Assembly (NCBI GenBank): GCA_051294375.1
Contig: CM119265.1
Coordinates: 18,462,631 to 18,526,630 of the forward strand
DNA: 64,000 nucleotides
Source: Paraspadella gotoi
Lineage: Eukaryota; Animalia; Chaetognatha
Direction: 5' to 3'
How positions within the stretch are numbered: the first letter of the stretch is position 1; each line of letters opens with the position of its first letter. The notes beneath the pieces are model-generated. The model was not told the DNA's origin, ran no database searches, and saw only the letters and a program-made list of their open reading frames with translations. Shown in pieces: positions 18,918 to 60,115 of the stretch. Both the position numbers and the translations under genes were made by a program.

Positions 18918-20489
18918 TCAACGACTGTGCGTACGAGAGTCGCTAACGGACGAAGCTTTCTTGCTGACAGAAGGAGACGGCGATCCAGAGGCGTTAACCG
19001 ATCCACCCGGAGTCACCTTTGGCGAAGCCATCGAAGAGCCGTGATTTGACGAGGCTGGCGATCCCGTCGAACCCGGCGGCATGCGCTCGTTAGCGCGATC
19101 CAATCGCTTGGCTGCGTCGAAACGATCTGCCCTCGATTCCTTCAAAGACGCCTTCAAACCTTCCCGACCCTCGACCAGTGTCCCCGATGGGAGGGTATTG
19201 GTACCCGAGAGTCCTTTCAGCGTGTATACCGTTTCGGACTCCTCGCGGAGCGTGCTAAAAACTTTGGCCATTCTACCGACGGCGCGGATCTTGGCGCGGA
19301 TTTTGTTTTTTCTGTCCTCGTCGGGATAGTCGTCGTCGTCGTCGTCGCCCTCGAGTTCGTCGTCGCTGCAGACCTGGAGGACGGCAACCAAGATTTCTGT
19401 AACCTTCTCTGCGACGAAAGGCAGCGACCAAGTGAAGACGTCCATAAAATTGGGCAGCCAGTAAGGGTGCGGGCTGAAGTTAAACTGCCGAATGTTCATT
19501 ACCAGGTCCTTGTTGGGGTTTGCCTCGTACTTGAGAATGGCCGCCTTGTTGTTGTAAACATCGAGGTAGTTGGGCGCCGAGAAGATAGTGATAAGCGAGG
19601 GAAACCCAGTTGAAGAACATTTACGGTACATTCTGTAACCAGCGTCTTGCGCCTCGTGGGCTCGAATGACGGCAAGCAGGTTGTTGTGCGCCAAAAACTG
19701 GCAGCAAGCGCTAAAAGAGAAATAGTAAGAGCAACCGCGAACGGTGTTGTGGGTGAAGTGCTCGTTGGTCTTTTCGCTACCATAATCTTCGTGAGGATCG
19801 GCCCAAAGAATGTCGCACATCGGGCCAAAAGGCGGCGGCTCCCTAAATCGGTCGATCCGTCGGATGTCGTCGACGGTGTGGATCTCGGGCGACAGGCCAC
19901 CGTGGATGCAGAGGTACTGGTGGTTCATTACGGCCGCAAGAGGGAGGCAGTCGAACGAGGACATGCAGGCCTCGTACACCTTTTCCGAATATTTGACGAG
20001 GCATTCGGTCTTAAAGGTAAAGTACTCGCTGAGATGACGGCACTCATGATTGCCGCGTATCATGTAGAAGGTATCGGTGAAAAGAATTTTGAGGGACCAA
20101 AGATAAAGGACAATTTCTATGCTGAAGTTTCCCCGATCGACGTAGTCGCCAAGAAAAAGATAGCGCGTCCTTTCGGGCGCGCCCCCGACGTCAAAGAGCT
20201 TCATGAGATCGTAAAACTGGCCATGAACGTCGCCACAAACGGTTACCGGCGCCGTCACGTCTAGCACTGTCCTCTCACGGCCGAGCAAGGCGGTGCCTTC
20301 GTTGATAATACGTAAAGCGACGAGTTCCTCCACTCGACCCTCGCGGATGAAGTGCGCCTTGAGGACGTCGGGTCGTGGCTTTCCACGCGCGTCGTAGACC
20401 TGCTGCATTGTGAGGCGATTCGCAGGAGGAGGCGGAAACGTGTCCACGACGCGTTTGTTCACATCGATCGCTTTAGCGGGCCGCGCCAT
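18918..20489 (-). CDS. PPP3C: Calcineurin A (PP2B catalytic subunit), intronless
   Basis: PPP motifs GDVHGQ, GDYVDRG and RGNHE; [12 protein letters not shown]; CNB-binding [12 protein letters not shown]; CaM-binding [20 protein letters not shown]; autoinhibitory [16 protein letters not shown]. Confidence 0.98.
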
Positions 20490-21544
20490 GATAAAGGTGA
20501 TAGAACAAGGGTTATCGTTTGATTTTGTTTGGATTTTATAGGAATTGGACTGGAGCTAAAAAAAGTAAAATGTATGAATCATAAAGTTACAAAATTTCAT
20601 ATTAAGTTAGTACGGAATCCTTAAGTTAAGGAATATAAATTAACTTCATTTGCATCAACATTTGTCATGAGTTATAAAACAAGTCGCAGGTTTTCAAAGC
20701 TGTGATCATTTTTGTTTTAAAAACGATGTTATTGTCATTCCTGTAAAAGAAACAAAAAAAATCAATAAATATCATTCAAACATTGCCCAAAAGTTGAGTG
20801 AAAGTTAGACATGCGACCAAAAGGAACTCTTTAGTTATTGTTTAAATATATAATAATAAAGCATACATCAATTAAAAATCTATAATTCAGAGTTACAATT
20901 TAAACGGCTATTATTATCTAGCACAGGTTGACTAGTGTCGATTATGAAAATATTAAGATATGAAAATTTTTAATTTTTAGAAATTATCTGGAAGATTTTA
21001 ACCAAGACCACAACAGGATAGAAGATGAGACGCAAAAATTTGTTCAATTTTAAATTTACCATCAAGCTGAGATACAAGCAGTATGAGTTGACTATCTAGG
21101 AAACAGAACTTTAAAAAAATACAAATTTGAAATCACCCTTTATGTTATCACAATAAAATTTATATATTCATGGCAAAGCAAACATTAGTTTGTCACGATC
21201 CATCACAATTATGATAATCATGGATTTAGACTCATCAATTGTATAATGTATGTATAAAATATAATATAATGGGAGAAAATTTAAATAAAGAGCATTTTTG
21301 CCTTTCATCTTTTTTGTTGTGTAGTCTTTAAAGTAAGTGTGCTATCAGTTACTTTAACATTACTACTGTTCAAAATTAATTTTCCCTTAATCGGCGATGT
21401 CTCCAGGAATGTTTGAAGATGATGCCCTTATATCATTTAATTATTCGCATAACAAAAACAACGATCTGGACTAAAAAACCGACTAAAAATAAAGCTAAGG
21501 GGAGAAATAATAATAGTGGGAGGGTGGTAAAAAAAAATTATCCT

Positions 21545-43169: not shown

Positions 43170-46100
43170 TTATTTAAATTTGGCGACGGTGGCCGTTACT
43201 GAGCCAGGAACCCTCGCGGGAAGTTGGTGAAAAATCTGAGGCCTTGGCGCTGCCATTACCGGCGGGCCTAACCGTGGAGGCGGGGGTACGAAATCTTTCA
43301 CAGCGGGAACGGGAGGCAGGGGACAATGCGGTAGCGGTGGCGCCGGCGGGGTTGCCATTGGCGGCAACGCGGCGGTGGGTTGAGGCGGCGGAGGAAATCC
43401 CGGTCCTCCGACAAGCGAATGAGCATTGACTTGAATGGGAAACGGTTGAGGGGCGAAGGTCGACGGGTGGGGCAAAGAGGAGGAGAGACTAGTCATGCTA
43501 AAAGGGAGCGGGGCGGGACCGGCAGCGAAGAATTCGACGCCCCCGCTCGGAGCCGGCATCCATGGAATGGATCCCGGAGGAATGGCTTGCAAGAAGGCCC
43601 CCGATATTTCAGGGGGCAAGGAAGGGAGCGAGACCGGGGGTTGCAAAGGACCCATGGGAGGAAGGGAATGAGGATGGTGAAAGGAGGGGGTTAAAGTGGC
43701 CATGGGTGGTTGAGGAATAGTCATTGACGGAGAGAGACAGTCCGTAACTGTCGCGACTACTGGTGGGGGAATTGGCGGCGGGAGCAGCGGTCCCGAAGAG
43801 GGTGCCAATGGCGTCGCCTGCTGAGGCGGCGGTTGTTGTGGAATTGGAGGCGGCTGCAATGGCTGTTGAGCAACCTGTGAGGGCAGCGGAGACGAATGCG
43901 TTGGCTGCTGAGGCGGGGCCATAGGTAGTGTAGCGGGGGGATTGACGTTCGTGGCTGATTGTGTCGGTTGAACCGAAACTGCGACCACCGACGTCATCTC
44001 CGGGGATGAGGAAATGACCGCCGAGACAGTACCAGCGGCGCAACTGACAGAACCAGGAGGCGGCCCAGTAAAATTTGGAGGCGGTTGATGAACATCTGGC
44101 AACAAAAACTGTCTTGGCGGACCACTCCTCCTAGACTTGGGCGGACGAGTCTGGACATGTTGTTGTTGAGCCGAGGAGGAATAATGTTGCGACACTTGAT
44201 GCTGCTGCGGCTGCTGCGGCTGCTGCAGACAGGGAACTGGTCCTTGCCATGAACTTGAAGAAACCGCGACAGGAGGAGGAGCTGCAGGTGAAGAAATTCC
44301 CGAAGCTGATGAGGATGCCGATATCGACTGATTTGATATTGCAGCGGTGGATCCGTTGGTGCGTTTTCCCGTATGACCGCTGGAAATGGTAACGGGGCGG
44401 CCGTCAAGGGTGGAAACGTCGCTAGCATAAACCTCTTCCGTATTGCCGTAATCAATAAAAGTCACGACGGCGGTTGTACGACTAAGTTGATTGATCACTG
44501 CAGGGTAAAAACTTCCATCTTCCCAGTATTTGGCCAGAACCGTGTCACCCTGCGAAACTGGGGTAGGCGTTGTCGTCCGCCCCGATTTTGAGGGGACGCC
44601 TATCGTCTTGATCGCAGGTCCCATGCCGAAGGATCGCGGCGGAGGACCATGGACGCGCGGCGGGTAAGGCGGTTCGTGGGGGCCGCGGGCAGACTTCGAG
44701 TGATCCCACTTGGAGTAAAGAGATTCTCTGACACCACGACCTTCCTCCCAGCGATTAACGCCGCCCCGTGATTCGGAGCCGTATCGCGAGTCTTTCCGGT
44801 CTTGACGAGCGCCAGAGTCCGATTCGTGGGATCTTCTGAGCTCGACAGGACCGGCCGCCGAGGAACCTTTGGAGTCGGGCTCCTTCTTTGAACGGGAATC
44901 ATCCTTCACATCGTTGAGCTTTCCGATACCTTCCCCGCCCACGCTTTCAAGAAAACCGTTGTTCTTCTTGTAATCAGAACTAATGTTGCTCGTCTTTTCA
45001 TCGCTATTTTCCTTCGGCGTTGAGGCGGAAGGAGCATTCAGCGGTGCAGGTCCCGACTTTGTCGTCATCGGTAACGGACCGGATTTCGGCCGGAAAGTTT
45101 GATGGTGAATGGCACTGTTTGGATGTGCGGCAAAGCCTGAAGTGGACGGAGGGGGCGGGAAGTGGTTAACGCTCAATTCGTTAAAGTTATTTAAGATTCC
45201 TTCGTCAGCATCTCCGGACGCAGCGACGTCGTTATTGGATCCCTGAGTATGTTTGGACGATGATTTGCTCATCAGCTGCTTGTTCGTCTGCTTGCTTGTT
45301 TCCGTTTTGGCGTTGGCGGGAAACTTTGTCTCCAAAAAGTCAAAAAGGGTTGCGGGACCAGAAGGTCGCACGTCCTCTGCATCACCGGCGTCAATGGCAC
45401 CGCCTCCTACTGTAGCAGAACTAGTGCGGCCGCCTCGGCGTCCACCTCTCCCACTTTTTGAGCCTCGAGCAGAGTAGTCGGTCTCGTCGTTGTGGTGCGC
45501 CTTCGTAGCGGTATGTTCGACCGTCGTCGCCCAATCGACGTCGCGGTAAACGGGTTTTGATGTCACGGTGGCTGGGTGACGTTGATTGTCCTCGCCATCT
45601 TTGGCCACTGGCGCTGTGTTGACGTGAGTGGAAGTGTCGACGACGTGAGATTTCGTCCAAGTTTTGCCACCACCGAAGTTTTTCTTTGGCTCTGCCGCTT
45701 TGGCTTTAATTGCCTCCTTGACAAATAGTAAAAGACAATTTACGATCGGATTTAAACGTTGACGAAACCCAAACGAAATAGCCAAACCCACCAATTGGAC
45801 AATAACTAAAACATTAAACAAACCTGCAACGCCTCGTCCCGCTGCTGCTCAAAAGTCGACGCCGTAACATCTTTTTCGTCATTGACCTCTTTCCTCCCCT
45901 CCGTCCCTCGGACTTCGCAGGTAGCGACTGAGGGAAAGGCCGGTCGTGATGTGTCAACCTGACTGGAGGTTTTTTTCCCAAAGCCCACAAATGGAGGCGG
46001 ACCACCCTCCTGCGTGAGAATAAGTAATATAGTTAGAACTTGGTTCAGTTCCTTCCTTCTTGATTAACAACATCAACAAAGATTCTACTCAACCCGGGAT

Positions 46101-47439: not shown

Positions 47440-50400
47440 TCAATATCTTCGTCCCCTCCCTCCCGCTCCACCTCCTCTACGACCTCCACGACTACCGCGA
47501 CCTCCTCTACCACCACCTCTGCCACCCCCGCTTCCTCCACCGCCTCTAAAGCCCCCTCCTCCAGAATTGGCCCCTCTAAAACCGCCTCGCCCGCCTCCTC
47601 TGTTACTCCCACTATTTCCACCTCGTCCGCTTTTCGATTCATCGACAACGGATTCTCCGTCAAGAGTTCTTAGGTCCGCCACGTCGACTCTCTCCACGTT
47701 GCCGTAATCCAAGAAACTGACAACAGCCATGTTCTTCGCCAGTTCGTCGACGACGGCGACGTAATACTCGCCGTCGGCCCAGTACTTGGCTAGCAAGGTA
47801 TCCCCCTCGGAGACGGAGGGTCTAGTCGGCGCGCGGAAAAGGTCGCCTCGCCTTCGATCATCTTCGCGCGGCGCGTGATGGTGAACGGTGCCGTTGGAAG
47901 GAAGCGGGAAGTCCTCAAGATCCGCGTGGAAGTCCGAAATTGGCTGGGGTCCGCGATTTCGAGAATATCGTTGTTGATTGAAAAAATTAAAGCCCTGAGA
48001 ACGAGATCCTCCTCCTCCTCCTCCTCCTCCTCCTCCACCGCCGCCGCCGCCGCCGCCGCCGCCTTTTCCGACGTCTCCTCCTTCGTGAATTTTTGTCTCC
48101 AAAAAATCAAAGAGAGTGGCTGGTCCTGAGGATGGCGGAGGCGCGGCCTGGTCTTCCTCCTCGCCCCTCCTCCCTCTTCCACGTCGACGCCCACCACGGC
48201 CGCGCCCCCCTCCACCGAATTCGTTTGCGTCCGCTTGCGCGTTGGAGACTCCCCTCTGCTCCTTGGCCCAGTTTACGTCGCGATAAACGGCAGAAGAGTT
48301 TTCAGTTATTCCCGGATCTTCGTCGGTCGATGCCACACGACGACGCGGGGGAGCTGACATCGGCTTAGAAGGTAGACGGCCCCCGCCGAAAGTTTTTTTC
48401 GGTTCCGTATCTTTGGACTTGAGCGCCTCCTGAGCATTAAACGAATTAAATCATTTTGGTAAAAGAGTTCAATTCTTGGCAATAATTTTGTAGAGTAACA
48501 AGTCGACAAAACCTGAAGAGCTTCGTCACGTTGCTGTTCAAATGCAGCATTTTTCTCCTGAGTTCCATCCTCTGGGGTATCGCCGTCGACGTGGTCGACG
48601 GTTCCGAAGGCCGGTTTGGAGACGTCTACATCTTTCGACTTCTTACCAAACGCAACCCACGGGGGCGGACCTCCTTCCTAGGAAGACATAGAAATATTAG
48701 GCGTAATAAGCAGAACAATATACATTCCTGTAATTAATCGAACTGAGTCCGAGGGAAAACACCTGGCCAGAGTAGACTCGGCCGGTCATTTCGACCAGTC
48801 TATTGGCTTCCCATTTCTCCACCATTTTTGCGACGCATCCGCCAAGAACTTTGATATCCTTGGGGCCGACTTGAACATAGCCCTGACGGACAGAGATTTT
48901 ACCAACAATTTGCACTTTGGTGCCTGGCGGTGTGTGGACGGTTAACTGAAAAAAAGGCAAACTTTTGGAAATCGGAAAAGGAATCTTTACTAAAAGTACT
49001 TGATAATTATATTTATATCAAAGAAAGAAAAAAATGTCATGAAGTTATGAAGCTAGACCCTAAACTTGTATTTATTGTTGCGCAACGTGCCTGATTGACA
49101 TGATCAATTTCCAGCAAATTGACGCTGTTAACGCCATCGGTGAGAGTGAGTTTTAGCATACGTGGCGCATGTTGCGATTCTTCATTGGATTTAGGAGCAG
49201 TAACGTTTCTGACTTTTTGAATCTAAATGAGGAAATGGGGTAAAAAGAAAAAGGTAATTCAGCGCCATGAAAAAATCTTAAAAGTATAGTGATCTCGCCA
49301 GACGTTACTATCAAAGAAAATTAATGAAAAAATTAATGATGATGATATAATAGTAATTGATGACTGATGTAATAATAATCGAATATTGATACGATGATAA
49401 CCAAAAGATTGATGCGATGATAACCAAAAGATTTATGTGATGATAACCAAAGGATTGATAGTTTTGATACGATGATAACCAAATATTGATGCGATGATAA
49501 CCAATTATTGATGCGATGATAACCAAATTATTGATGCGATGATAACCAAATTATTGATGCGATGATAACCAAATTATTGATGGGATGATAATCATTCATT
49601 GATTCGATGATAATCATTCATTGATTCGATGATAATCATTCATTGATTCGATGATAATCATTCATTGATGCGATGATAATCATTCATTGATGCGATGATA
49701 ATCATTCATTGATGCGATGATAACCATTCATTGATGCTATGATAATCATTCATTGATGCTATGATAATTATTCATTGATGCGATGATAATCATTCATTGA
49801 TGCGATATAATCATTCATTGACGCGATGATAATCATTCATTGACGCGATGAGTCATTCATCGTAAATAAAACAAACAAATGCCTGTATAAGTGAGAGAGA
49901 GAGAGAGAAAGAGAAAAAGAGAGAGCGGCATATAATTTAAGGAGAGAGAGCTAGACAGCCGTTGGACAGCCGCTGGAGAGCTGCTGCAGAGCTGAACTCG
50001 TCTATATAGACAAAAATTGTTTTGTAAATAAAACAAACAAATGAGTGGAGGAATCTGAAACAACAATTTAAAAGACCTCAATGATGAGAAGCCATGTCAA
50101 AACTTTCTATGGTTACACATTTGAGCTATTTCCAATGTTAAAACATCATGACTGATGAGTGGGTCCAACATGACGACGGCGGCGGCACAAAGAAGCAATA
50201 CTAAATGGTTATCTACGCCCAAGACGTAGATAAAAATATTTAAAAATATTAAAGCCTTAATCTACTGCGGTAAAAACACCACTGTCTCGCAATACCTGCG
50301 CTACAATTGGCCCCTCGATTTTATCAGTTTTGCTGCCCGCCTTGCCAATGTCGTCAGGAAACGAAGGTAAGCCGACTCCCTTGAGATCCATGTTTTTCAG

Positions 50401-50517
50401 AACTTCCAGCGCTGACTTAAAGGGCAGGTCGCAAAAGCCGGGAATCTCTTGGACGATCTTTTCCGGGCTAATCCGCCAACCGTCGGCTTTAAGCCGGTTC
50501 AGTACTTCACCCGACAT
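47440..50517 (-). CDS. TDRD3: TDRD3 paralog A (OB-fold, Tudor, RGG tail)
   Basis: MSGEVLNRLKADGW; [30 protein letters not shown]; HTPPGTKV; EGGPPPWVAFGKK; [11 protein letters not shown]; Tudor GDTLLAKYWADGEYYVAVV...AVVSFLDYGNVERV; RGG-rich C-terminus. Confidence 0.93.
49380..49857. repeat. 22-23-bp minisatellite in TDRD3-A intron
   Basis: About 20 head-to-tail units, changing from tgatgcgatgataaccaaattat (23 bp) to tgatgcgatgataatcattcat (22 bp). No unique spacers. Confidence 0.95.
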
Positions 50518-51440
50518 GGTGCAAAATTATCGCTTATTTAGTTTATAAATAGCTAATAAGACTTCATTTCTATATGTATCTCTATCGAGAAGAAAAAAGT
50601 AAATGAAAATACTCGGGGCCAAAACAAATGCCAGAAAAAAATTGCGGACAAATTATATAATTTAATTAAACGAAAGTAAAGAATTAAAAAAAAATCGCGG
50701 CATTGTTCAAGGACTTGCGTTGCGAGAAATGGCCAAGTATTTAAGCTACATAAATGCATCTTTTTAAAATTTTGCCTTATGCGATTAACGGGCCAAAATA
50801 CTTCCGCAGCAACTAAAAAAAAATAAGATTCTCTCATTCTCAATTGTTCTTGATCTAATAAAGGAAGATCGCCGATTAAAAACGTAATAACATCTGAGAG
50901 AAAAATATGTACAATTGTAGGGGAGGGAAAAAAATTCATGCAAGATAATTCAAAATAGCACGGAAACAACTATGACAAAATGATATAACGAAAATTCACT
51001 ATTTTCACGCACAGGTAAAATTAAATAATGAAGATGAATATCAAGCGATCACTACGGATACTTGCGAGGGGAAATTGATGGATAAGATCTAAAGCGTGAT
51101 GGAGCAAGAATCTAGGATCTGCTAACATTAAAATGGTTAAAAAATTGAGTAAAGAAGTATTTCTCCTAGCATAATAAATATAATTGATAAACTTGAATCT
51201 GTTATGGGATAGTTCAAAATAAAAACCTGGAATATGCTAATTGAACGAAAATTTTGTCAATCTATTTTTAAATATAAACAATATAATTAACTGCTGAGTT
51301 AGTAAGTGTCTAGTTTTTAATTCGAAAGAGTTTGCATTTAGATACAATGATAATGACACATAATTAATATCTTAAATATGCAGTAAGTTGTATGATGCCG
51401 GATATAAATAAAATATTCACATAAACACAGGAAGGGAATG

Positions 51441-54400
51441 TCAAACGATAGAGCAATGGCCTTTGGACTTGCAACCATCGCACCACCTCCATCGGTTCTT
51501 TGGCCACGAGGTTTTGCACGATTTGCCGCGAGTTTTCGAGATCTTTCCTCTCTTGATCTTGGCACGAACGTTTCCTTCGATCCCGTTTTTCTCTCTTTCC
51601 AGTTGCGAATCGATTGAAGCTATATCGTTCGGATTGTCCGAATTCTCCGAATGCTCCGTAGTAAGGGGAATATCTCCTCCGATTAAGCCGTCGTTGTCGT
51701 TGTCATCGATAGGGGCGACGATGTAAGGTGGATCGGCGACGAAGACGACGACTACGGACTTTTTTCTTTTGAGCAGTTGAGCCTTCGTTGACGGAAGATT
51801 ACAATCACGACACTCTGATAAAGCCGAGGTAGTTTCCTCGGATTCATGGCTTGTGGCCGATGGAAGAAGAGACTTTTTTCCTTCTGGCGTCAGCATGTAT
51901 CGAATCTCATCATCATCAGAAGATTCTTCTTCCTTTTCAAGATCCAAGTGGTCGCCGACCGAAACGTTTTCTCTCCCGACACATTTTTTCTTCAACGTGC
52001 ATTCCCGACACCAAAGCCACCGACGAGATAAACCGTATTTTTGACGGCAACTGTGCCCTACTTCATTTTCAGACAAATAGTAAACAACTGACTCTTCGTA
52101 ATTCGGATTAAGGCGATACAATGGATCTTCTTCATCATCCAACACGTCGACTTCAATTGAGTTTGATTGTGTCCCGATTGAAGACTCTTTCTCGCTATAT
52201 TTTTTCAATTTCTTTTTCATCTCATCGACGACGATTAAAGGATCACCGAAAGTCTCGCGAGATTGCAAGGATGCTTCCGTCGTCACATCCGACGAACTTG
52301 CGGGCGTCTGGACCGACGTTTCCCACAAACGCCTCCTGGAGGAACGAAATGAGGCGGAATCGCTCCAAAATCGCCCGTTTAATCCAGAATCTATTTTAGG
52401 AGAGGTCAAAATTGCTCTTGATGAGGACAAGCTTCGAGTTTTAATCCTTTTAAAATTAGTCTTCGTCATTGATTCCGCTGATGTGGCTGCAGCTGGCGTC
52501 GCTGGAGCAAGAGTCGATGAGGCATCAAACGGTAACGCTATGCGAAAGGTGCGTTTCTTCTTTAACGGTTCAAAATAGGAGTTTGAGGATAATGTTCTCT
52601 GACGCCTTCCGCTCTCAAGATTCCAAAATTTTCCGTTCAAGCCAGAAATGGAAGCGATTGATGTCGAGACGGGATTTTGTTTAGCGGATTTTCTTCGGTG
52701 CTCCATTTCGTTGGACAGGAGAGAATTTTTAATCGGTCGATTATGGACGCCACCGTCGCTGAGATGGCGCCGCTTTGGTTTAAAGTGTTTTCGGCGGGGA
52801 ACTGAAGATGAACGACGTCGTTGTCTCTCGGGACGATGAATATCGGGAATCCCGGATACGCTGAAGGAGACGTGAGCGCCTTTTCGAGTAGAGTGAGGCC
52901 TCTCCACCTTGCTGGAGAAAAGAGGTGACTCTAATGCTTGGTTGTTTTCGACGTGGGGAGTCAATGAAGACGATGGAAAATTCGGATCGTTCGGGGTTTT
53001 GACGCGATGGCTCGACCGACGTCTCTTAGATTCGGCGCGCCAAAACCCACCGTTGAGTCCAAGGTCATTTATCAACGATGCGCGCCTTTTCTTCGCTCTC
53101 TCTGCTTTTTTCGCTGCTTCCGCTCTCTTTCGCTCGATAGCGTTCACCCGCTTGCTTGGAAGGCCGGGACGGTTTCCCTCGCCTTGCCAGAACTCGCCGT
53201 TAAGTCCGGTCGAGGAGGCCCTGGCCAGTTTTTTCATGAGGATAGACCGCTTACAAGACTTGAATCGCGTCCGAGATGGAGAAAGCGGTTGAGTCAGACA
53301 ACCTTCGATTCCATCCGCCGAAGTCGAAACGTGAGCAGTTGGAATCTCCTCAAAGACATTTTCGCTCTCTTGATGTAGACTCGAAGATTCTTTAACTATG
53401 AGTTTCGACAGGGAGATACTGTCTTGGCATCCAGGGCACCTAGAACAAGGGATGATTTTTTTTTCAAAATATAAATAATAATAAAAATAATATTGAAATG
53501 TAATTTTCCCTTACCTTCTGCAATACGTGCCGACTATGTTCCTTGATCGCCTAGATCGGATGGCAATTCTCTTTAGACTCAGATAGATTCTAAACTGCTC
53601 TGCACGTTTGACGCTGTTTCGTTTCATTTCAATCAGTCGCCTCTTTCCGAGCGATTTAGAGGATCTGCATCTACTTTTTGGCCGGCATGACTTGAGTTGG
53701 CGAGAATTGTTCGAACCGGAGGGAGGAGGCTTTCGCGAGGGCGAGCCGCCGGAGGTACGTCTAGAAGGCGACGGAGGTCCGCCGATCGGATCCGTGGCGG
53801 CCAGGGCGATCATTTTCGATTCGCACTTAAGTCTGTCTCTTTCCGAGTTTTTGCGTAATTCCCTTCCTTCGACTGGAGCGGGCGCGAGCTTCGCCTCTTC
53901 AGTCTTCTTCGAATTTTCCAGGATCTCACGTTGCCCATGTTCTTCCTCTTCATGGGTTCTAAGTTGACGGCGATAGTAAAACTTCTTCCCGCAAGTCAAA
54001 CATGCGTAAAGATGGCAATCGGTATGAAACAGCGATCGGTGGTAGTTGAGTTCGCTGAAGCGGAGAAATTCCTTGTCACAGCGGTCGCATTGGTATTTTC
54101 CAGAGAGGTTGCGAAAGAGGTGCGATCTACGGGAAAGAGGAGATTCGGCCTCGTCGGCGTCATGTGTCGACGATGTGGGCGAGGATAACTCGAGCGGGAG
54201 AACGGCGGGAACGCGGTCGAGCGTCGCGGGGTGAGGTGGCAGTGGGAGAGGCGATGGCGGGGGAATTGTCGGAGATTTGGCAACGGCCGCGGAAGGATTG
54301 TTCATCGATTTGACGTCGCAGGTGATTGAGACACTCGCCGTTGAATCGACTTCAGCTGACTCCGAGTTGCGCAAATGATGACGATGACCGGAGTTTCTTT

Positions 54401-57400
54401 TCGCCGGCGTTCGACGAACCGGCGGGGGAGACAAGCGAATGGGTGATTTTCGGCGCTTCTTCGAATCCCTGATTACAAACGAAACCACAGTGAGTTTGAC
54501 CATGCGATTAAAAAATCATAAACGTCTAAGATTCGCTAATTTTATTACCGATTTATTTTGGGATTGGAAATATTTTCCTCTTTGAACTTAAAAGATTTGG
54601 ACAAAGCTGTCTTCAATAATTTGGAACTTGCGTGTTTGAAAGGACTGAAAAAGTAAATATTGCATAGTAACTTGTAACATTTTATATCTAATAATCTATA
54701 AGGAATATTCAGATTTATTCTCCTCATTCCTTGCCTACCTTTCGAAAGTGACTGTATACTCTGGATCAGGACAGAACGAAATGAAAATTCTGCGACGTTC
54801 TCTCTCGTGCGATTTGGCGCTACCACGACGACGAGGAATGAAACTGGCTCTTTCTTTGGCTCGTTCGTCTCTTCTCCCTCCTCCGCCGCCACAGACGCGT
54901 AGGATCCCGTCGCGATCGACGACAGGATATTCCACGGAATCGTCAAAGGAAGGGGCGTCCACGCAGGATGCGCGGGCCTCGGTATCGGAGAAAGCGTGGC
55001 TGTCAGAGTGCGCGTTGGACACCGCGTTCAGACCAGCGATTACTTCGACCATATCGAGTGATCCGGAAGATGGGGAAGGGACCTTGAAGAGAAAGAGTGT
55101 CAGTCTGTCAGATAATTTGTTTCGTAGAAAAACTTAAGAAAGATCGACGATTCGCATACCGAATTAGGCGTCGGGGGAATTTCCATGTCACTAGCTTCAT
55201 CCGAGTCGTATCCGGCTGCGCCGTGTCGAGGGACGATGATGAGGTACGGCTGCACAACGTTGTCGGCATTGTTGTTGCGAGAGGCAGGGACAACGACTTC
55301 CTGGGGAGCGCCTCTTGATTCGGCGATAGAGATGGTGACCGGGGTGGTGACGGGAAGGGATCGTGTGGGCGCTGTGGATGGAAGGGCCTGCTTCGTCAGC
55401 GTCGCATCCGGTTCAGGGTCGGGGGTGATGGGCGAGGAGAGGGGCTCATTTTCAGTACCCGAAGCGATTTGTTTAGGACCACCGGTCAACGTTTGAGGTT
55501 CTGAAAAAAAAAATATCACATTTTAATACATTTTCAACTGTGCTTATACAGTCAAATTATTAATCAAATAAAATGTACACGTAAATACATAGTCTCACAT
55601 TAGTCACGCATTCAATAAAAGTACCTTCTTTGGATTCCGTTGAATCTACTCCTTCTCCCTCCGCTTTGAGATCTCTCGGAAAATTTAAAAGGCATCGTTT
55701 ACGTTTGCAGCAGTTCTCACACCACTTTTCCCTTTCTCGAGGACCGTAGTAAGAACGACACTTGCGCCCCTCCACGACAGCCAACAAAACATCCGTAGAA
55801 AGGTGGCGTTTCCTGGCGCTCTTTCGCGGCGCGCCGACTGTTCCGCCAGAGCAATCCGAAGAAGCTCCGGAGATTAGGACATTCGATTCGATTGATGATT
55901 TCGATTCGGCCTCGGAAACGACCGGATTCGGATCAGATGACTCGGACACTTCCTCGTTTTCATTAAGCCCCTTTGAATCAATCAAATTCGTCGCCGAATC
56001 TAATGTCGCGTCCGGTTTAGGAAGCGTCGCGACGGAGGAAGTCGAACTCAAACTATTCATGGAAGAATGACAAACAAGAGCTTTCTCAGAAGTCGAAGTT
56101 GTCGGTGGCGGAAGAGAACAGAGTATTTGAATTTCCTCGTGGACAGCATTTGAGGACCCGCTAGGCGAAAGCAGGGGCTTGGCCTTTCTCTTATTGGCCC
56201 GAGCCACGGCATCGGCGAAGGCATTCGCTCTCGGGCCCCTGGGCGTGGAGGTTATGGAAGAAGAAGCCGTCGAAGGCGACCCTGGCACAGGAGCAGACCC
56301 ATTGAGGCTCGGAGAAGATTGGGGTTCGAGGATGTGATGGTCGGAGGAGGGAATAGGGGATGCTTCGGGAGAAATAGGCGGCGAAGATCGAGGGACGGGG
56401 GCTTGATTAGGTTCGTTAGAACCGGCACATGCCGTTGAAGGCTTTGGCGTGGAAGTTGAAGATGACGATGAGGTTTTGACAGATTGAGTTGTGTTGGAAG
56501 AGAGCGTAGATGTGGGTGGGGAAACAGACATTAGGCCCACAGCAGCTGACTTGAGAACCGCTATGACAGACTCCAAACGAGATCCAGCGGGACCTGCTGT
56601 TCCCTGAGGAGTCTTGGGTGCATGGTTAGGTCGAGAAAGTGCTGGGGTTGGTAATGCGACAGGCGCGGCACTGCTCGATGGACTGACTCCATTCAACTCT
56701 TTCGGCGGAAGTGCCGGAGGGGCCTCCGAAACGATTTCGGCGACGTCGGCCTTGTAAGAATTATCGAAGTCGGCGTAATCCGACGGCTCGAACTTGAGTT
56801 TTTCGAAAGGTTTGACGCTGCAGACAAAATCGAGTTTTAGTCTAGAGGAGGGAGCGCTAGGATGCCGAGCCATATGAACAGAAAGCCCCTTGCTGAAATA
56901 AAATTGGCGCCCACAAAACTGGCATTGGTGTCTGCCGAATTCCTTGAGCGGCGATCTAGGTTTGGCGGGCGTTAAGTTAGTGCGCGCACCTGCCGGCGAT
57001 TGACGACGAACCGGGGACGGGGAATCGCAGCGGGGATTAAGATGCATCTCAACGTGCGTCTTAAATGAGAGATGCAGGAAGAAAGAAGCGCCGCAGTTAC
57101 GGCACACATACTTGCCCTCTTCGTCTTTGTACCCGTGAGCTGGGTCGACGCAGGAGCGCCGAACTTCGTTCATGGATGATGTCAGAGGCGTGGATTTTCG
57201 GACAAGCAGAGTCGGCGTGGACGATGACGGAGCGCCGGTGAGAATGTGGCACGAAACGTCATCGTCGATGCCATTGGCCGTGCATGCGGCGTTCGAGAGA
57301 CTAGATTGTTCGGCGGGAGTGACAGCGACCGCGGATAAACTGACACCCGGCGCCTCCGCCTCGGAGGCTAGATGATCGGGACACGAGTACGCCGTCGACG

Positions 57401-58463
57401 CACGAGTCTTGCCGTCCATGAGGATCTTGTGCACGCTTTTGAGATGGCGCTTGAGAGCTTTGTCGTGGAGGAATCTTTTGGTGCACAGTGAGCAAGCCAC
57501 CTGCTCCGCCGTCATATGGGCCCGTATTCGATGATCGTGTAAAGCCTTAGAGTGAAGGAACTTTACAGGGCACAATTCGCAAGCAAACTCAAAACCTCTG
57601 GCTGGCATCTGAGCCGCAGGAAACGTTGAAGCCGGAACGCCGTTCGTCCCGACTTTAAACGCCGACGCCGCGTGGACATTACGAAGTCCGTTGGCGTCGA
57701 TACGAGTCGTCGAATCGGCAGAGGAAACTCCCTCGTTCATAGTGGCCCATCCCGTGGCCGAATTGAGAACGCCATTGCTGTACACCAAAGGCGCCTTGCG
57801 AATCGCGGGCCGTTGATGCGCCGGAGCACGGGGTAAAGGACCGCGAGGGAGCAGGAGCCGGTCGGTAGAGGACGAAAGAGAAATCGGAGCCGAAGGACGA
57901 TGATCCATGCTGGAGGAGAATTTGGTGCATCTCTTCTTCTTGCAGCATGCCTTGCACCATAAATGCTTCAAACGGGGACCAAAGCGTCGACGACATCGCC
58001 AAAGAATGGGGCCCACCGTCGCGGAGGTCGACAGGTTCCTCGAATCGTTGGAACGAGACGAGGCATTCTCGAATCGAGAACCTGGAATCCGACAATATGT
58101 AATTATTAACTAGTAATTGCTATATAAAAGAAAAAAGTAAAGCAACAAATTAAAAAAGGCTGGAAAGCTTTCTAAAACAGAGAGAATTAGAGTACTAAGC
58201 CTTGAGAAATTTATTTGATCCAAAAACCGAAACGAGAGCGAAATCTCACCAAGATTATTAACCGATATGACGGTCTCCCTCACGTCCGAAATGATAACCC
58301 TGTCGTCCAAATCTGTCCCTGATTGAAGTGTAGAGACGGTGGGAGTGGCAAAATGGGGCGCGTCTCCGCGTTCTCGTTTGACGATGACGTGATTAAGACG
58401 CGTAGGACCGGAAGTCGAGGGGGGGCTGACGATAGGGTGACTAGTGGCGGCCATTTCGCTCAT
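51441..58463 (-). CDS. ~2100-aa zinc-finger protein with 6 C2H2 fingers and 4 C-clamp-like Cys4 motifs
   Basis: Six phase-compatible GT-AG exons: 58463-58250, 58081-55625, 55500-55160, ~55082-54739, ~54469-53516, ~53440-51441. C2H2 fingers include FACELCPVKFLHSKALHDHRIRAH and YQCDRCDKEFLRFSELNYHRSLFH. C-x12-C-x2-C-x5-C motifs are present. Confidence 0.88.
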
Positions 58464-58839
58464 GGCTCGAAAAGCGCCAGTGGGCGTGGCCGATAGTGAT
58501 CAACGCATTGTCGTTTTCCATCGAAAGCGCTTTCACGATAGCATCTGGAAAAAAAAATGAAAAACTTTAACTTCCAAAGATCGTTTAAACTTTTTCATGA
58601 ATATATTGTTTTTGATATATGTGAGATTAAATTGAGTTAAAGTCGGTTCGAATAATAAAAAATAAAACAAAGGTTTATAGTAGACACCATATAAATTGAA
58701 GGCATTAAATAGATCCTTGTCGCTCTGTCTCATAGTTTGTATGGGTAAAAAGAAAATTTGACTGACATCTGAATTAACAATTTAGATCAAATCCGAATTT
58801 AATGTGATTAAAGTGTTGATTGTAAAAATGTCTTCTATC

Positions 58840-58935
58840 AACGGTCGCCATTTTGCACCGATGCAGTGGAGAGCTCTCAAGCGCCATTAAGGAAGGGGAA
58901 AACACATGCTGGTCACGTGATGCATCCGGAGACTC
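58840..58935. promoter_or_regulatory. Putative bidirectional promoter between the zinc-finger gene and DHFR
   Basis: GC-richer island in an AT-rich divergent spacer, with a YY1-type CGCCATTTT (~58846), GCGCCATT (~58881) and an E-box GGTCACGTGA (58911-58920). Confidence 0.5.
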
Positions 58936-59319
58936 GCTTTAAAACTATTTTCAAATACGAATTTTGTCAAATACTCATGGTTAAATTCTTAATTTTTCGA
59001 TATAGTAATTGTCGAAAAACGTGTTGTAATAATGAAGAAATCGTGTTCAGATAATTAAAACCAAATTAATATCACATTGATAAATATGACATTGATTAAA
59101 AATTAAATCTAAAATTTTACAATAATCGTTGGATAATTTTTTTTAATGTCAAGAATTGCTTTATTCTGCCGATGAAATTTTACATTAATGCCTTTCGTAG
59201 CGTTGACCTTTTGTTTCTTAATTCTCAAAAAATCAGTTTATTTCATCGCGATTCGCAACGCGAAGAACGACTTTTTCTCACCAAAAATACCAAAATTTCT
59301 GGGTGAAAGTGATAATTTC

Positions 59320-60115
<796 letters not shown>

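Follow-up and report, generated by a model that had tools for sequence, protein, structure and literature searches.

What would a protein do with several C-clamps, when described proteins carry only one? The question is raised by a gene on the minus strand of a 64,000-nucleotide stretch of the Paraspadella gotoi genome (GenBank assembly GCA_051294375.1, contig CM119265.1, positions 18,462,631 to 18,526,630; hereafter the window, numbered from its first letter). A first-pass annotation, made from the letters alone, had proposed a six-exon gene with four C-clamps and six C2H2 fingers. We find a single coding sequence (CDS) of 2,134 codons with three canonical C-clamps, one degenerate clamp-like motif, six C2H2 fingers and four GLNGxFW repeats (Table 1). 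Reasoning from characterised clamps, we give a probability of roughly 55% to the reading that this gene encodes a multivalent reader of unmethylated (A/G)CCG/CCGG sites, which would stay on GC-rich unmethylated DNA through avidity and bring partners to it.

Three canonical clamps in one reading frame

The seven coding exons join into one frame with zero internal stops. A public sequencing run (X1), which contains 88% of the region's sampled words, yielded an 8,477-base contig from which all six of the gene's introns (each GT-AG, 75-168 bases long) are removed, and for which no differing letters are listed within the gene. X1 was judged to be RNA-derived because the introns are spliced out in its contig. 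The contig joins all exons into one frame, which upholds the annotated assignment of the exons to one gene; the exon count rises from six to seven, a 96-nt exon (exon 5) having been missed.

The RNA support for the gene is this one contig, assembled from a single run within one study, and contigs can span genes, since this one continues into the neighboring TDRD3-like gene. Could separate genes, or chance cysteine patterns, have been joined by mistake? We regard this as highly improbable: the introns have GT-AG borders and are gone from the RNA, a single frame runs over the whole CDS, clamps 1 and 2 share exon 2 while motifs 3 and 4 share exon 7, and the exon 3-4 junction is found again in a related species (X3, described below). 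When the residues of the protein were shuffled 20,000 times, the clamp patterns appeared 0 times (observed: three strict, four relaxed), as did the GLNGxFW pattern, and the C2H2 pattern averaged 0.0008 per shuffle against six observed.

All four annotated clamp motifs were found in place on the minus strand, but they are not equals. The C-clamp is defined by the spacing C-x12-C-x2-C-x5-C together with two basic stretches (PMC4999783). Clamps 1, 2 and 3 all have this spacing, with 4, 3 and 2 basic residues around Cys1 and 4, 4 and 3 between Cys3 and Cys4, respectively. The consensus given in the annotation placed five residues between G and W, where there are actually six. In an alignment with nine outside clamps, TCFs and Panish included, the eight invariant positions are retained in each of clamps 1-3 (8/8). 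When 177,635 solved sequences in the PDB were searched, clamps 1-3 each matched 7DTA, the C-clamp of SLC2A4RG, with single-motif E-values of 0.0006-0.004, and a profile of the four motifs matched it at E=6e-7. The structure prediction suggested by the annotation gave a clamp 1 model (pLDDT 77) whose sole match among 48,161 chains was 7DTA (Z 3.6, rmsd 2.3, 33 aligned), and Foldseek likewise returned 7DTA only (TM 0.60/0.69, E 0.98); the model was built from an alignment that included TCF-type clamps, and the fold match covers clamp 1 alone. Such similarity scores are small because the motif itself is small. Spacing, PDB matches and, for clamp 1, the predicted fold thus support the assignment of clamps 1-3 as C-clamps. 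ATLAS features for the clamps pointed to PF27556 (ZNF704_C) at 0.80, a lead only; the Pfam set that we used returned no clamp family even for Panish.

Motif 4 retains the tryptophan and the four cysteines, but has eleven residues in place of twelve after the first of them, and an R, a G and a K that all 12 aligned canonical clamps have in common are replaced or absent. A hidden Markov model (HMM) of 12 outside clamps gave it 5.1 bits, against 25-30 bits for clamps 1-3, scores that are partly circular because the outside clamps were retrieved with the window's own profile. Motif 4 had no 7DTA match among the PDB sequences, and its low-confidence model (pLDDT 65) had zero fold matches, which is uninformative at that pLDDT. 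It is likely that motif 4 is weakened or altered in specificity, so that the annotated four C-clamps become three and a degenerate relative.

Clamps 1-3 share 10-13 of 23 residues pairwise, and 10-12 of 23 third codon positions. Because so few residues and about half of the third codon positions are shared, we take them to be old copies that retained the invariant residues. A tree from the 30 clamp columns, which included no named member of the ZNF395 clade, supported 0 of 14 branches and placed the window clamps on long ones; a single origin of the four motifs was neither shown nor rejected (approximately unbiased test, p-AU 0.138).

Table 1. Features of the multi-clamp gene, in window positions (aa, amino acids)
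Feature	Position	Strand	Details
5' leader	58464..58544	-	after strong splice acceptor (AG 58546-58545); three upstream ATGs
Coding exon 1	58250..58463	-	ATG at 58463, aa 1-71; X1 contig covers 58248-58548, joined to exon 2
Coding exon 2	55625..58081	-	clamp 1, fingers 1-4, long Ser/Pro linker, clamp 2; X1 contig
Coding exon 3	55160..55500	-	low complexity; exon 3-4 junction found again in related species X3
Coding exon 4	54739..55082	-	X1 contig and joined CDS
Coding exon 5	54549..54644	-	96 nt, in frame, present in RNA contig; frame kept if skipped
Coding exon 6	53515..54468	-	fingers 5-6; X1 contig
Coding exon 7	51441..53439	-	four GLNGxFW repeats, clamp 3, clamp-like motif 4, stop; X1 contig
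C-clamp 1	57927..57995	-	aa 101-123, canonical; PDB 7DTA top match, E=0.0041; model matches 7DTA only
C-clamp 2	55692..55760	-	aa 846-868, canonical; PDB 7DTA top match, E=0.0043
C-clamp 3	51981..52049	-	aa 1933-1955, canonical; PDB 7DTA sole match, E=0.00056
Clamp-like motif 4, degenerate	51453..51518	-	aa 2110-2131; C-x11-C-x2-C-x5-C; invariant R, G, K lost
C2H2 fingers 1-2	57429..57581 (57516-57581, 57429-57494)	-	aa 239-289, 7-residue linker
C2H2 finger 3	57042..57104	-	aa 398-418, isolated; kept in related species X3
C2H2 finger 4	56862..56924	-	aa 458-478, isolated
C2H2 fingers 5-6	53937..54089 (54024-54089, 53937-54002)	-	aa 1278-1328, 7-residue linker; kept in related species X2
Four GLNGxFW repeats	52365..53207 (53187-53207, 53040-53060, 52623-52643, 52365-52385)	-	basic low-complexity region, exon 7

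Fingers, repeats and relatives

The rest of the protein is mostly low-complexity, and the linkers between its motifs abound either in Ser, Pro and Thr or in Lys and Arg. All six annotated fingers were found, each with the pattern C-x2-C-x3-F-x8-H-x3/4-H; the Pfam zf-C2H2 model proposed as a check gave E 3e-5 and 24.5 bits at best, just below its cut-off of 25.2. The consensus linker of tandem C2H2 fingers is TGEKP. Here the layout is 2+1+1+2, and both pairs have 7-residue linkers of a non-TGEKP kind. The annotation's inventory had overlooked the four GLNGxFW repeats, which have six invariant positions per copy and zero matches in the PDB and ATLAS; they likely form a partner-binding motif.

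Pfam found no HMG box in the reading frames of all seven exons, where a control protein (P0008) scored HMG at 1e-21, and no CXXC, catalytic or known chromatin domain. For a beta-catenin-binding domain, exon 1 matched none of the Pfam families, even with E allowed up to 10, and exons 2-7 none of that kind. The co-factor motifs PxDLS, WRPW, EH1, HCF and AT-hook are absent from the protein; there is one weak match, at aa 1898, to a WDR5-binding pattern.

Is the gene conserved? Two other organisms of the X1 study (X2 and X3) each gave three contigs at 80% likeness, 200-300 bases long with depths of 3-5; the pieces shown span no clamp and so are silent on clamp loss. In finger 5 of X2, four of four listed codon changes are synonymous (4 of 16 differences listed), and in finger 3 of X3 seven of nine (11 of 21 differences listed). 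The loose ends of the X2 and X3 matches, put in frame by hand, have 7 of 10 residues identical before finger 5 and 5 of 9 into finger 6. X3 splices the exon 3-4 junction at the identical place, with 8 of 10 residues identical after it, and its ends on either side of finger 3 have no similarity. Because the finger changes are mostly synonymous and ends continue in frame, we conclude that the gene has orthologs with constrained fingers. Another piece from X2, which matched over two stretches of 21-22 bases, was put down to chance and discarded.

Farther afield, the four-motif profile was compared with 1.84 billion representative proteins and gave 11 matches at E<=0.001: three HMG-box TCF-like proteins, Panish (P0010), five unnamed single-clamp proteins and two unnamed proteins with two clamps. 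None of the 11 has three clamps, though such a protein would have topped the scores; this is no proof of absence, because the library is clustered at 50% and holds mostly short proteins. P0001 (639 aa) has a clamp, three C2H2-like motifs and a second clamp; in P0002 (197 aa), a clamp with x11 spacing precedes one of canonical spacing. The two are singletons whose source contigs are short, at 2,000 and 741 bases, and they may be partial. The annotated statement that other proteins carry one clamp therefore holds for described proteins but not for these two, which are what the suggested search for multi-clamp relatives returned. As the P0002 clamp is one residue short like motif 4, the x11 variant may recur independently. 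The single-clamp proteins (P0003, P0005, P0007, P0009 and P0011) are short, with a TCF-type clamp and no HMG match in those scanned (all but P0007), and are possibly further Panish-like genes or fragments.

Word-indexed protein searches covered proteins of up to 2,000 aa, so a full-length ortholog could not surface in them. Within that range the clamp 1 region gave five candidates, none at E<=10, and neither the four-clamp alignment (98 candidates) nor fingers 5-6 (three candidates) gave any that scored. A metagenome scan with fingers 5-6 returned 375 pattern matches and six loci, all of 16 residues, one of which (L001) is an unrelated open reading frame (ORF); all six were dropped. Viral contigs scanned with P0002 gave seven pattern matches and zero relatives.

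A candidate reader of unmethylated sites

How might such a protein work? [quoted passage not shown] Human clamps of the ZNF395 family favor unmethylated CCGG and an apparently dimeric CCGGCCGG site, and of 132 human proteins whose finger pairs lie 3-10 residues apart, 112 yielded motifs (PMC13538051, supplement). By extension from these clamps, each of the three intact copies would bind one zinc ion and one unmethylated (A/G)CCG or CCGG site. Clamps 1 and 2 lie 745 residues apart and clamps 2 and 3 1,087 apart, with motif 4 after 177 more, on Ser/Pro-rich or basic linkers; because of these distances, the clamps would be expected to occupy different sites, or to link DNA segments, and not to recognise a single composite motif of fixed layout. 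On such long flexible linkers, three clamps would probably grip separate unmethylated GC sites by avidity, the two finger pairs likely add sequence preference, and the GLNGxFW repeats with their basic flanks likely dock a chromatin or co-regulator partner. The protein would act outside the beta-catenin switch.

Several observations weigh against this reading. Expression is documented by one run of one study. The single-motif E-values are modest, the clamp 1 fold match is small and was made with TCF-type clamps in the model's alignment, and the best finger score falls short of the Pfam cut-off. Motif 4 departs from the canonical spacing, has lost three invariant residues and does not match 7DTA. 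The window clamps resemble TCF clamps in their C-terminal half, and, taken alone, the clamps of human TCF7 and TCF7L2 failed in high-throughput systematic evolution of ligands by exponential enrichment (HT-SELEX), where motifs came from 9 of 17 tested clamp proteins only (PMC13538051, supplement). The role of the clamp in driving promoter selection is itself disputed in one paper (PMC3479169). The ortholog fragments of X2 and X3 are fingers and linker motifs, in which clamp conservation is not visible. Finally, CpG observed/expected is 1.3 over the window (0.94-1.49 in 4-kb bins), with no depletion in coding or non-coding DNA, so that sites free of methylation would be common and could by themselves do little to target the protein. 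The undepleted CpG also makes CpG islands of the vertebrate type unlikely in the window, and it weakens the annotation's suggestion that the protein marks CpG-rich promoters.

Part of this evidence would suit a different account, in which the clamps are relics or contacts for protein or RNA and the C2H2 pairs alone set the place of binding. Motif 4 has decayed, the window clamps sit on long branches, and fingers and linker motifs are what is conserved in X2 and X3; TCF-type clamps often fail alone in vitro (PMC13538051, supplement), and in TCF the clamp makes a protein contact with the HMG box as well, one that does not depend on zinc (PMC3896468). Yet three old and diverged copies all keep the eight invariant residues and both basic stretches, which makes selection on a DNA-binding surface hard to avoid, and we consider relic clamps unlikely.

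Undepleted CpG leads to another alternative, a role within the DNA-methylation system, where the protein would stand in for CXXC readers, mark unmethylated genes and confine methylation or silencing to transposons. P. gotoi has methylation on transposons and not on genes, and it has DNMT1 paralogues and all three TETs without zf-CXXC (PMC12460157); C-clamps, for their part, are methylation-sensitive (PMC4267635). This stand-in role is doubtful, however, as none of the seven exons encodes a catalytic or known chromatin domain. In its boldest form the argument would say that arrow worms, having shifted methylation from genes onto transposons and dropped CXXC from DNMT1 paralogues and TETs, multiplied the TCF C-clamp into a new unmethylated-CpG reader. 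Such a scaffold of four clamps and six fingers would coat genes that are unmethylated, bridge GC sites far apart, recruit chromatin partners through the four GLNGxFW repeats and so keep silencing on transposons, a scenario that we regard as speculative and improbable. The available text of the supplementary PDFs of PMC12460157 has no TDRD3, ZNF704 or clamp entries.

The gene's neighbors bear on a further alternative. The X1 contig runs unbroken (47440-58548, minus strand) from the clamp gene across 923 bases into a spliced TDRD3-like gene (ATG at 50517; PDB TDRD3, E=1e-8) whose introns are removed in it. Between the two genes are no AATAAA and two ATTAAA, and the pair could be either a two-gene operon or two genes with overlapping untranslated regions. 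An intron of the TDRD3-like gene (49255-50156) holds a repeat at which contigs of X1 reach a depth of 7,005. Another Tudor exon of the TDRD3 kind lies at 43173-45848, within an ORF of 892 aa whose long tail is rich in Pro and Gln; over the Tudor domain it is 52% identical to the first, and it is likely a tandem duplicate. On the other side, DHFR stands head-to-head, 777 bases from the clamp gene's first acceptor (interval 58545-59322), and the two likely share a promoter; helper-type words between them are not enriched (4 vs. 2.6 expected).

These are neighbors of a housekeeping type, and operon genes of arrow worms are depleted for developmental functions (PMC12460157). They argue against an offshoot of TCF that, like Panish, would occupy Wnt helper sites and tune or compete with TCF in development. 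The precedent is real, since the clamp is all that Panish retained of TCF, and it turned into a determinant of development (PMC9133022, PMC6783274). Panish is also among the 11 profile matches and, in the tree with 0 of 14 branches supported, the row closest to clamps 1 and 2. HMG and beta-catenin-binding domains are absent, though, no tie to Wnt was found, and nothing directly backs the annotation's suggestion of competition with TCF at Wnt response elements; a Panish-like role seems to us quite unlikely.

At the 5' end, the main X1 contig begins 4 bases ahead of the exon that follows the strong acceptor, and depth falls to 3.4 upstream of it, from 58.5. A bare acceptor and such a drop are as an outron would give, a hint of trans-splicing with no leader sequence seen, nor a usable one supplied by PMC2566580; widespread trans-splicing and operons are reported for P. 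gotoi (PMC12460157). The bare acceptor, the read-through into the TDRD3-like gene and the undepleted CpG all accord with an arrow worm. Of the three upstream ATGs (58441-58544), two open in-frame upstream ORFs of 3 and 2 aa, and one opens an out-of-frame upstream ORF of 26 aa that overlaps the main ATG. Translational control through them is possible. The window holds no second copy of the gene. Elsewhere in it, a Pfam Metallophos phosphatase, which we take to be calcineurin A-like, occupies one intron-free 545-aa ORF (18918-20555) amid intron-rich genes and is possibly a retrocopy.

As an arrow-worm gene, it is a candidate for how unmethylated genes are told apart from transposons, which are methylated, in an animal line whose methylation toolkit has been rewired. 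The presence of three intact clamps in one natural chain shows that the C-clamp can be multiplied as a module, and it makes it possible to test directly whether avidity can make up for the weak binding of TCF-type clamps in isolation and take the place of dimer binding as in the ZNF395 type. Two more uncharacterised motifs are the x11 clamp variant, seen in motif 4 and P0002, and the repeat GLNGxFW.

Comparison with known systems

The C-clamp has been called an under-explored DNA-binding class of more than 8,000 proteins in two clades (PMC13538051, supplement), and the cross-animal survey, in the portions of its text available, names no multi-clamp form (PMC13538051, supplement; PMC11601247). 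In the literature that we searched, mostly papers outside subscription, no protein with two, three, tandem or duplicated clamps is described. The annotation's impression of an architecture without known counterpart thus stands: three canonical clamps, one degenerate clamp, six fingers and four repeats were not found described together, although the parts are known and two-clamp proteins exist unnamed in databases.

Among the latter, P0001 and P0002 share with the arrow-worm protein the presence of two clamps or more in one chain, and the clamp-fingers-clamp order of P0001 resembles exon 2. The likeness of P0001 is essentially limited to the clamps, however, and these carry a ZNF395-like Trp; the clamps of P0001 and P0002 are likely independent duplications. 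With TCF/LEF E-tail isoforms, Pangolin and POP-1 the protein has in common the clamp spacing and the basic stretch between Cys3 and Cys4. TCFs have one clamp beside an HMG box, whereas no exon here encodes an HMG box or a beta-catenin-binding domain, and because both are absent the protein is not a TCF. Panish of Chironomus riparius also has a TCF-type clamp without HMG, but has 131 aa, one clamp and no fingers, and is known only from midges (PMC9133022, PMC6783274, PMC13446688). The zf-CXXC proteins (KDM2A, CXXC4, TET3, MBD1) offer a functional analogy only, as zinc motifs that read unmethylated CpG (PMC13538051); their motif is unrelated to the C-clamp, and the arrow-worm protein has no CXXC.

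A parallel in composition is with ZNF395, ZNF704 and SLC2A4RG (HDBP2, GIG1 and HDBP1/GLUT4EF; Glut4EF in the fly), which also combine a clamp with a C2H2 finger and have no HMG box. Clamps 1-3 are like that of SLC2A4RG (7DTA) in sequence, and clamp 1 in predicted fold as well. The 7DTA chain and P0001 have a Trp two residues past Cys3 and a small residue before Cys4, both of which are absent from the window clamps; the Trp after Cys3 is lacking in all four motifs. SLC2A4RG and ZNF395 have one C2H2 finger and apparently bind CCGGCCGG as dimers, in contrast to three clamps plus one degenerate motif and six fingers in a 2,134-aa chain. By layout, then, the protein lies outside the ZNF395/ZNF704/SLC2A4RG family, and by analogy it would work as that family does, through clamp-led reading of DNA without an HMG box.

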